A DNA stretch of 63,354 bases, the filler included, from Reclinomonas americana ATCC 50394 (lineage: Eukaryota), in NCBI GenBank assembly GCA_048213135.1. It is 13 parts of 13 records of this genome, joined end to end, with 100 filler letters (N's around TTAATTAATTAA, not from the genome) between each part and the next. Parts side by side here need not be neighbours in the genome. Positions count along the whole stretch, not along the records: positions 28,569 to 41,868 come from AFZH01023952.1; 12 more parts are not named here. One strand, given 5' to 3'. Below are positions 39,021 through 39,386 of this stretch, one piece after another. A model generated the notes under the pieces. It did not search any database, was not told the DNA's origin, and saw nothing but the letters and a program-made list of their open reading frames with translations. Numbering within the stretch: the stretch's first letter is position 1; each line of letters starts with the position of its first letter. The position numbers and the translations under genes are program-made.

Positions 39021-39071
39021 GTGGCCAAAAGAGACGACGAGAAGAGGTGGCGGCGGCAAAAAAAAGAGAGT

Positions 39072-39158
39072 GAAGAAGCCGACGGTCGGCCACTCGCTTC
39101 GTCCTGATCCTCAACGCAGCCGCAAAGACGAGGGCGGCCAACTCAGGCGGGCTTCTTC
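39072..39158 (-). ncRNA. Putative small hairpin ncRNA, divergent paralogue of the array unit
   Basis: Same terminal stem (GAAGAAGCC...GGCUUCUUC) as the array with a different interior; CTCAAG at -30, ACCCACAA at -63..-70 and a T8 run downstream. Confidence 0.55.
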
Positions 39159-39386
39159 GGTGGTGAATAGGGACGGCAGCTGCAGATCTTGAGTTGCGTG
39201 TGGCAGAACAAGAAGCGAGATTGTGGGTTCGTTGTCGAAACTGGAATAATTCCTTTGTTCGAGAATGTTGCACCTCAGTGTGGGTCTGTTCCAGCAGCAG
39301 TTGTCACCAATCCCGATAGTGGTAAGCACACATGCTGTACTCGAGTGACAAAAGAGAGAGGGAGGGAGGAAGCAAAAAAGAAAAGC

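Follow-up and report, generated by a model that had tools for sequence, protein, structure and literature searches.

Putative RNA polymerase III hairpin RNA genes with a retained basal stem in Reclinomonas americana, and their comparison with Y, vault and Class I RNAs

Among the closest described systems are the Y RNAs (RF00019) and the nematode stem-bulge RNAs, which are ~100 nt long, are made by RNA polymerase III (Pol III) from clustered paralogues and present a U tail, a variable interior and paired ends with a conserved stem; in the Y RNAs a 7-bp helix is followed by a single bulged base (PMC4726728). TROVE-domain proteins bind bulged terminal helices of this kind, as in the pairs Ro60-Y RNA and TEP1-vault RNA (PMC7916137, PMC9326685, PMC4726728). 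In a third system, the Class I RNA genes, the Dictyostelium upstream sequence element (DUSE) lies ~60 nt upstream, the genes form clusters, and the RNAs have a terminal stem, a variable interior and an RRM-protein that binds them; Class I RNAs are reported from dictyostelids only (PMC7919456). In this work we describe a family of hairpin elements in Reclinomonas americana ATCC 50394 (assembly GCA_048213135.1), starting from an 87-nt panhandle that lies beside a tandem array of related copies. The window, that is, the whole stretch of DNA analysed, has 63,354 nucleotides, filler between its parts included. An earlier reading of this DNA, the original prediction, took the 87-nt element for a divergent paralogue that exposes the functional core of an RNA gene family. 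Judged from the sequence, it is very probable that the family is one of real RNA genes.

Promoter boxes, basal stem and terminator

The array copies are called here type 1, the 87-nt element type 2, and a further diverged form, found at a second locus, type 3. The type-2 gene is composed of the following features:

39072-39158, minus strand: divergent member (type 2), an 87-nt panhandle with its predicted +1 G at 39158
39221-39228, minus strand: ACCCACAA, upstream sequence element (USE; proximal sequence element or DUSE type) at -70 to -63; the same or a near-identical 8-mer is found upstream of small nuclear RNA (snRNA) genes
39188-39193, minus strand: second box, CTCAAG, at -35 to -30, with the same letters at the same place as in the array copies
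39140-39158, minus strand: 5' strand of the basal stem, with 7 bp and one bulged base, followed by further pairing that bulged U14 and W16 break up; 15/19 bases as in type 1, 14/19 as in type 3
39072-39087, minus strand: 3' strand of the basal stem; 15/16 bases as in type 1, 12/16 as in type 3
39058-39065, minus strand: T8 run, a Pol III-type terminator, 6 nt beyond the stem

The pieces originally described are present in the DNA: the 87-nt element on the minus strand with its 5' and 3' ends and the motifs CUCGUC, CUGCGUU and UCAG, the pairings GUUGGCC/GGCCGAC and UCGUC/GACGA (both in the minimum-free-energy fold), ACCCACAA at -70 to -63, CTCAAG followed by a 29-nt gap, and the T8 run downstream. 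The arrangement of the motifs is also far from what chance gives, as the pattern box1-N26-28-box2-N29-GAAGAAG matched 7 times in the window and not once in 100 shuffles; six of the seven matches are array copies and are therefore not independent.

The promoter could be related to known genes of the same genome. Rfam searches located U6 at three loci, U2 at three, U4 at two and the signal recognition particle (SRP) RNA at one, the last below the gathering score. The 8-mer NCCCAYAA stands upstream of all three U6 loci, both U4 loci, the single SRP locus and two of the three U2 loci (one U2 carries a CC variant and one is N-masked), so that ACCCACAA is the genome's own snRNA promoter element. Its end lies at -63 in type 2, -64 in type 1 and -65 in type 3, compared with -63 or -64 in U6, -61 in U4 and -56 in U2. 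A USE of this form is a type-3 promoter element across many eukaryotes (PMC8287931), and the DUSE of Dictyostelium has the same form (PMC7919456). Near -35, U6 presents CACAAG or CATATG and SRP presents TGTAAG, which resemble CTCAAG, whereas U2 and U4 present C-rich runs; by eye and in these few genes, with no canonical TATA among them, the difference between A/T-containing and C-rich second boxes may be read as a switch between Pol III and Pol II. The CTCAAG box is thus probably a TATA-equivalent that selects Pol III. As a separate observation, the U2 snRNAs are of two types, of 199 nt (C14:162841-163039) and ~217 nt (C409, C371), and one of them has the CC-variant USE.

At the other end, the first T4 begins at nt 94 in type 2, 96 in type 1 and 105 in type 3 (one copy of each), from which RNAs of ~97, ~99 and ~108 nt, respectively, are predicted; a few type-1 variants contain an internal T4. 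The size of ~90 nt (87-90) originally expected for the type-2 RNA would thus be too short.

To compare the types, an array consensus was made from 42 units, leaving out 3 of 45 (a contig edge, an N and an internal duplication). Against this consensus the type-2 gene keeps 14/14 positions of the boxes and 30/35 of the stem strands (15/19 and 15/16), while its interior is weakly related (p 0.014). The flanks had been called unrelated to the array. This stands for the upstream 50 nt and the two spacers, which are at shuffle level (p 0.35, 0.77 and 0.26), and does not fully stand for the downstream 60 nt (p 0.01), where the similarity is partly the T-run and a pyrimidine bias. In all three pairwise comparisons between types, boxes and stem are retained and spacers are at chance level. 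Within the 42 units, columns of the boxes have a mean identity of 0.96-0.97 and those of the RNA one of 0.94-0.98; in spacers and flanks the value is 0.78-0.87.

This distribution is the main argument on whether we are looking at a satellite or SINE-like (short interspersed element) selfish repeat with a captured Pol III promoter, in which case the divergent copy would be a decaying unit at the array edge, spared homogenisation. Such an origin would agree with the location of both divergent types at array ends, with the 44 near-identical tandem copies and with the moderate fold of type 2. Decay, however, should be even, and here boxes and stem persist between spacers that are random; moreover, the copies are confined to two loci without dispersal, the stem shows a compensatory change, and the two haplotypes hardly differ in the RNA. 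Traits of a tRNA-derived SINE were not seen either (ARAGORN returned 0 genes, there are no internal boxes, and copies occur at two loci only). We consider a selfish repeat very unlikely. The snRNA-type promoter shared by the copies, the third type with its compensatory change, and the conservation of boxes and RNA above that of the spacers support that boxes, spacing, basal stem and terminator have been selectively retained, and the same evidence favors an RNA gene family over a satellite, both as originally proposed.

The basal stem itself was evaluated in 14 aligned sequences, in which 97.3% of the cells of a 16-bp stem are paired, compared with 29-62% in slid registers. Eight of the 16 pairs vary on one side and still pair, and one varies on both, pair 2 changing from A-U to G-C in type 3; the stem covariation score was reached by 14 of 500 shuffles. 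Covariation, which had been suggested as a check, was thus found as one compensatory pair change, and as only that one event in 16 pairs. U14, G15, G17 and U18 are invariant in the stem. Two registers, one with the bulge at 8 and the other with it at 10, are about equally good fits; in the structural ensembles, types 1 and 3 favor the former and type 2 the latter. The fold of type 2 is comparatively weak (z -2.3, with 4/200 shuffles as good; other copies reach z -7.5 and -3.9). Of the core originally outlined, the interior motifs CUCGUC and CUGCRUU...UCAG find no support, given that type 3 has neither CUCGUC nor UCAG; being absent there, they leave the basal stem alone as the core.

Arrays, copies and a second orphan family

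The type-1 copies of the window are arranged as follows:

39387-41860, minus strand: tandem array of eight type-1 copies, 91 nt each, period ~342 bp; seven copies have both boxes
39387-39477, 39731-39821, 40073-40163 and 40411-40501, minus strand: type-1 copies 1-4, array members
40756-40846, 41092-41182, 41434-41524 and 41770-41860, minus strand: type-1 copies 5-8, array members

The eighth copy ends in an assembly gap that may conceal further ones, and owing to such gaps all copy counts are lower bounds. The type-2 element was said to lie just outside the array. It is indeed 315 bp from the last array copy; since this distance is close to the array period of 336-345, the element is better described as the end unit of the cluster than as a free-standing gene.

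The search for additional members, set in advance as a check of the prediction, yielded the third diverged type and a second array. A covariance model, R1, was built from 14 sequences and run on the window and the fetched loci, whereas the whole genome was covered by exact patterns; together they gave 44 type-1 copies (8 in the window and 36 in fetched contigs), two of type 2 and two of type 3. More diverged members outside the coverage of the exact patterns may have been missed, and one of the genome pattern scans is represented by 100 of its 156 matches. R1 scores the type-2 element, which belongs to its own training set, at 78 bits. The family resides at two loci, both of which are represented by two haplotypes. 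One locus comprises the window and C8575/C8576, the other C8194 and C8659/C8660. Between haplotypes the flanks are 94-96.5% identical, while the RNA differs at 0/87 positions in type 2 (the other copy being in C8575) and at 1/97 in type 3. The latter is located as follows:

C8659:1459-1555, plus strand, and C8194:8883-8979, minus strand: type 3, 97 nt, at the head of the second array

It has a USE at -72, CAAAAG at -33 and a T-run, and retains 14-15/19 and 12-13/16 of the stem bases; the rest of its interior is unrelated. The second array (12-17 copies) sits between SNARE-like and NDUFA9-like genes, both judged by eye. In the C8194 array we also noticed a partial internal duplication that displaces the promoter of one copy, as well as a copy of 98 nt whose 3' stem carries an insertion (8228-8292 and 7444-7541, respectively, of L046, the C8194 stretch). 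Metagenome relatives were also considered: a single pattern scan returned 24 matches, of which none had the upstream element and two had T4, the best model score was 20.6 bits, and they look coding-like; all were rejected as chance.

From two pattern scans 17 stretches were fetched; 15 are not RNA-gene-like, and the other two correspond to a second cluster, family B, revealed by the promoter-based patterns:

C7341:4901-5356 and C7342:204-891 (allelic to C6952-C6954): family B, with the same USE and a T-run

In one haplotype, family B comprises at least five diverged paralogues of 96-116 nt and, besides these, a promoter truncated at the contig end. Each member has a terminal stem of 8 bp, separated by a 3x4 internal loop from a 10-bp stem in which a single A is bulged; beyond the stem come a conserved motif and a loop that varies. 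Across 7 sequences, 3 of the 18 pairs are compensatory, with both bases changed, and the score was reached by 2 of 500 shuffles. Rfam gave only chance-level hits on its members at E up to 10. No kinship with the hairpin family was demonstrated, R1 scoring family B at 9-10 bits. Its ends may resemble those of vault RNAs, and we regard family B as a vault/Y-like candidate. The organism thus keeps orphan clusters of panhandle RNA genes, which weighs against reading the hairpin family as a satellite.

Possible partners of the basal stem

A bulged terminal stem that is fixed, an interior that is free and a U tail make up the pattern seen where a protein recognises an RNA by its stem, and the basal stem is probably such a protein site. 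In the proposed mechanism, SNAPc would bind the upstream element (SNAPC3 is present in the genome), and Pol III would initiate at the G ~70 nt downstream and stop at the T-run. By pairing with each other, the RNA ends would form a basal stem of ~16 bp, whose 5' strand carries single-base bulges, together with a U tail. Retained by selection, this stem would be the binding site of a dedicated protein, with the upper stem free to vary. The partner would be one of two TROVE-domain proteins, forming a Y/vault-like ribonucleoprotein (RNP) that may act in RNA quality control or protein sequestration. That the genes are transcribed, specifically by Pol III, and that the stem serves in protein binding or processing with a given partner, we infer from features of the DNA. 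As for that partner, a TROVE protein is the likeliest, with a probability of about 0.4, on the grounds of co-occurrence and shape. The genes concerned are:

C40:66353-69420 and C3731: first eukaryotic TROVE gene
C238:~29400-32228 and C530: second eukaryotic TROVE gene

Each of these two genes is present in two haplotypes, and there is one bacterial TROVE gene besides. Both eukaryotic genes appear to end after a vWA-like stretch (E 0.003), a Ro-like architecture judged by eye and with one gene gapped; among the reading frames viewed, no NACHT or WD40 frame was seen by eye. The Pfam Ro60 vWA model matched the bacterial copy only. The local TROVE proteins look more like the TEP1/p80 type than the Ro60 type. 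Longer, TEP1-like homologues of the TROVE protein were sought and did not turn up, which is a weak negative, and an Atlas search with this protein returned generic TROVE clusters only. Three MVP domain profiles had no match in the genome, and their controls were equally silent. The silence of the MVP profiles is in line with a 2025 survey that reports TEP1 and full-length MVP as absent from jakobids (PMC12547018). A RecG-like helicase frame was seen by eye after the first TROVE gene (C40).

Several observations weigh against a Y/vault-like RNP. The Rfam models Y_RNA and Vault had no match in the genome (48-50 candidates scored with each) and, with E allowed up to 10, none on the element. The vertebrate Ro site, which requires a bulged C and a 3-nt bulge on the opposite strand, is not reproduced, as the base bulged beyond the 7-bp helix varies with the type (C, U or A) and the opposite 3-nt bulge is absent. 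There is no internal box B, with at least 3 mismatches in any candidate. In its interior, type 1 forms a tight rod where Y and vault RNAs have open loops. The central loop of family B is open; judged by shape, this family would suit the TROVE proteins at least equally well and may occupy them. Finally, the covariation is a single compensatory event, below R-scape grade. That both orphan panhandle families are independent of each other and that each is bound through its own basal stem by one of the two stand-alone TROVE proteins is an idea we hold as doubtful.

The comparison with known classes can be extended. With respect to Y RNAs, the bulged base here is not a fixed C; the alternative register bulges C10 or U10, and the opposite 3-nt bulge is missing in that register too. 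The GUG-CAC upper stem and the UUAUC loop motif are absent, the interior is largely paired, there are ~10-18 copies per array, and RF00019 is not matched. Vault RNAs (RF00006) are alike in size (80-140 nt), Pol III transcription (predicted here), bulged terminal helix, clustered paralogues and the presence of a TROVE protein; the differences are a wholly external promoter (the best box A has 2-4 and the best box B 3-4 mismatches to the consensus) and the lack of an RF00006 match, and neither MVP nor full-length TEP1 was detected in the genome, these two being weak negatives. Outside animals, the vault-RNA record in the surveyed literature is trypanosomatid, where TBsRNA-10 was recognised by its shape and by TEP1 binding (PMC9326685, PMC7916137).

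The basal stem could instead bind a protein without a TROVE domain, be it RRM, double-stranded-RNA-binding or lineage-specific, the Pol III family then being an analogue of the Class I RNAs. The gene-level evidence fits this equally, and all the specific tests for Y and vault RNAs failed. Class I genes offer a parallel in DUSE, clusters, terminal stem and RRM protein (PMC7919456), and the likeness to Dictyostelium covers a DUSE-type element (here at -70 to -63), a T-run, multigene clusters, a terminal stem and a variable interior. On the other hand, no candidate protein was identified and the Class I hallmarks are absent: the RNAs here measure 87-97 instead of 42-65 nt, have a bulged stem of 16 bp instead of 6 bp and a GC content of 50-60% instead of 32-41%, lack the unpaired 11-nt motif and the CUGU end, and have no Rfam match. 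Furthermore, the upstream element is widespread in eukaryotes (PMC8287931), hence sharing a USE with Class I does not imply kinship. We hold a non-TROVE partner as a serious possibility, short of even odds.

A different fate for the RNA would be that of a Pol III hairpin precursor, cut from the basal stem into small RNAs of ~21 nt by a Dicer-like enzyme. The conserved part, of ~19 nt per arm, and the long stable hairpin of type 1 (z -5 to -7.5) would suit it. Yet the genome gave no match to Piwi or eukaryotic RNase III domains, the one RNase III hit being on a bacterial contig (weak negatives in an intron-rich genome), and at positions 2-8 the three types are not the same, the variation there being of a sort that preserves pairing. 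Dicing is, in our opinion, highly improbable.

An antisense regulator or chaperone of U6 snRNA, acting through the U6 3' region, was suggested by one interior stretch:

39121-39132, minus strand: interior 12-mer, perfect complement of the 3' part of U6 snRNA, as good in 2/100 U6 shuffles, with U6 being 1 of 9 RNAs compared; possibly chance

Cofolding type 2 with U6 brings a gain of -4.6 kcal/mol, and 7 nt of the complementary stretch recur in type 1. Types 1 and 3, however, do no better than shuffles (p 0.38, 0.57 and 0.67; cofold gain 0), the complementary stretch is paired within the hairpin, and a normal U4 exists. We consider this the least probable of the readings weighed here. The proposal of a U4 substitute was ruled out, as the genome has its U4.

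Genes with type-3 promoters (U6, SRP, MRP, plant and ciliate telomerase RNA) are alike in having a USE and a second box, a G at +1 and a T-run (PMC8287931). The RNA body matches none of them, and U6, U4, U2 and SRP are separately present in the genome. For telomerase RNA, a multicopy rod-like hairpin is probably a poor fit. The consensus Sm-binding motif is absent from all three types, and the 5' sequence differs among types, unlike spliced-leader or Sm-class snRNAs. The Rfam scan of the window gave 0 hits at gathering score and, at E up to 10, only chance-level hits on the array and on the element. No description of this hairpin RNA was found in the literature, with incomplete coverage of subscription papers. 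We take this for a real family of RNA genes under selection, similar in general kind to known ones yet belonging to none of them, with putative expression and a putative partner.

Non-coding RNAs of protists beyond the housekeeping set are poorly known, and a single genome gives here a promoter grammar, a conserved 16-bp core and three natural variants, which amount to a mutational series for finding the binding protein. The assembly holds 48 gene copies or more, which implies that the RNA is one of high dosage. Binding by TROVE proteins would carry the Y/vault RNA class to a new lineage in a form invisible to Rfam; without such binding, protists would have here a new class of RNA that parallels Class I of Dictyostelium. 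Should two families and two TROVE proteins belong together, a deep-branching eukaryote would have a Y-like RNP system that lacks both vaults and canonical Ro60. This would bear on the ancestral TROVE RNP before the split of Y and vault RNAs, and would open a promoter-first route to such RNAs in other protists.

Setting of the locus

The assembly has 108 Mb in 16,441 contigs, with both haplotypes for many loci and with bacterial contigs inside. The DNA of the window is eukaryotic, with short GT-AG introns. The neighbour of the type-2 gene is:

38751-39020, plus strand: last exon of a Cys/Met-metabolism enzyme gene dependent on pyridoxal phosphate (PLP) (PF01053, E 1.6e-30)

This gene is convergent with the type-2 RNA gene, with 37 bases between its stop codon and the T-run. 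A 3'-untranslated-region element of the neighbouring enzyme gene, for example a selenocysteine insertion sequence, was rejected, because the minus strand folds better (-38.7 vs -32.2 kcal/mol) and the orientation to neighbours differs between loci.

Other observations were made in the window. An exon of the LSG1 GTPase has its top identity, 77%, with the jakobid Seculamonas ecuadoriensis, the others being at or below 72% (among the 120 hits listed, for a single exon). Positions 11155-27232 (contig C8482) hold an intron-less bacterial-type defence island with a GC content of 62-67%, flanked by scaffold gaps within a eukaryotic scaffold and containing SIR2-like, VRR-NUC and two OLD/TOPRIM + UvrD pairs; it is probably a mis-scaffolded bacterial contig and possibly a transfer. 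A 22-bp G-rich tandem repeat of ~51 copies, with strong GC skew, occupies 56450-57613, and long pyrimidine-rich simple repeats are located at 45145-45593, directly before the LSG1 GTPase exon, and at 31034-31290.
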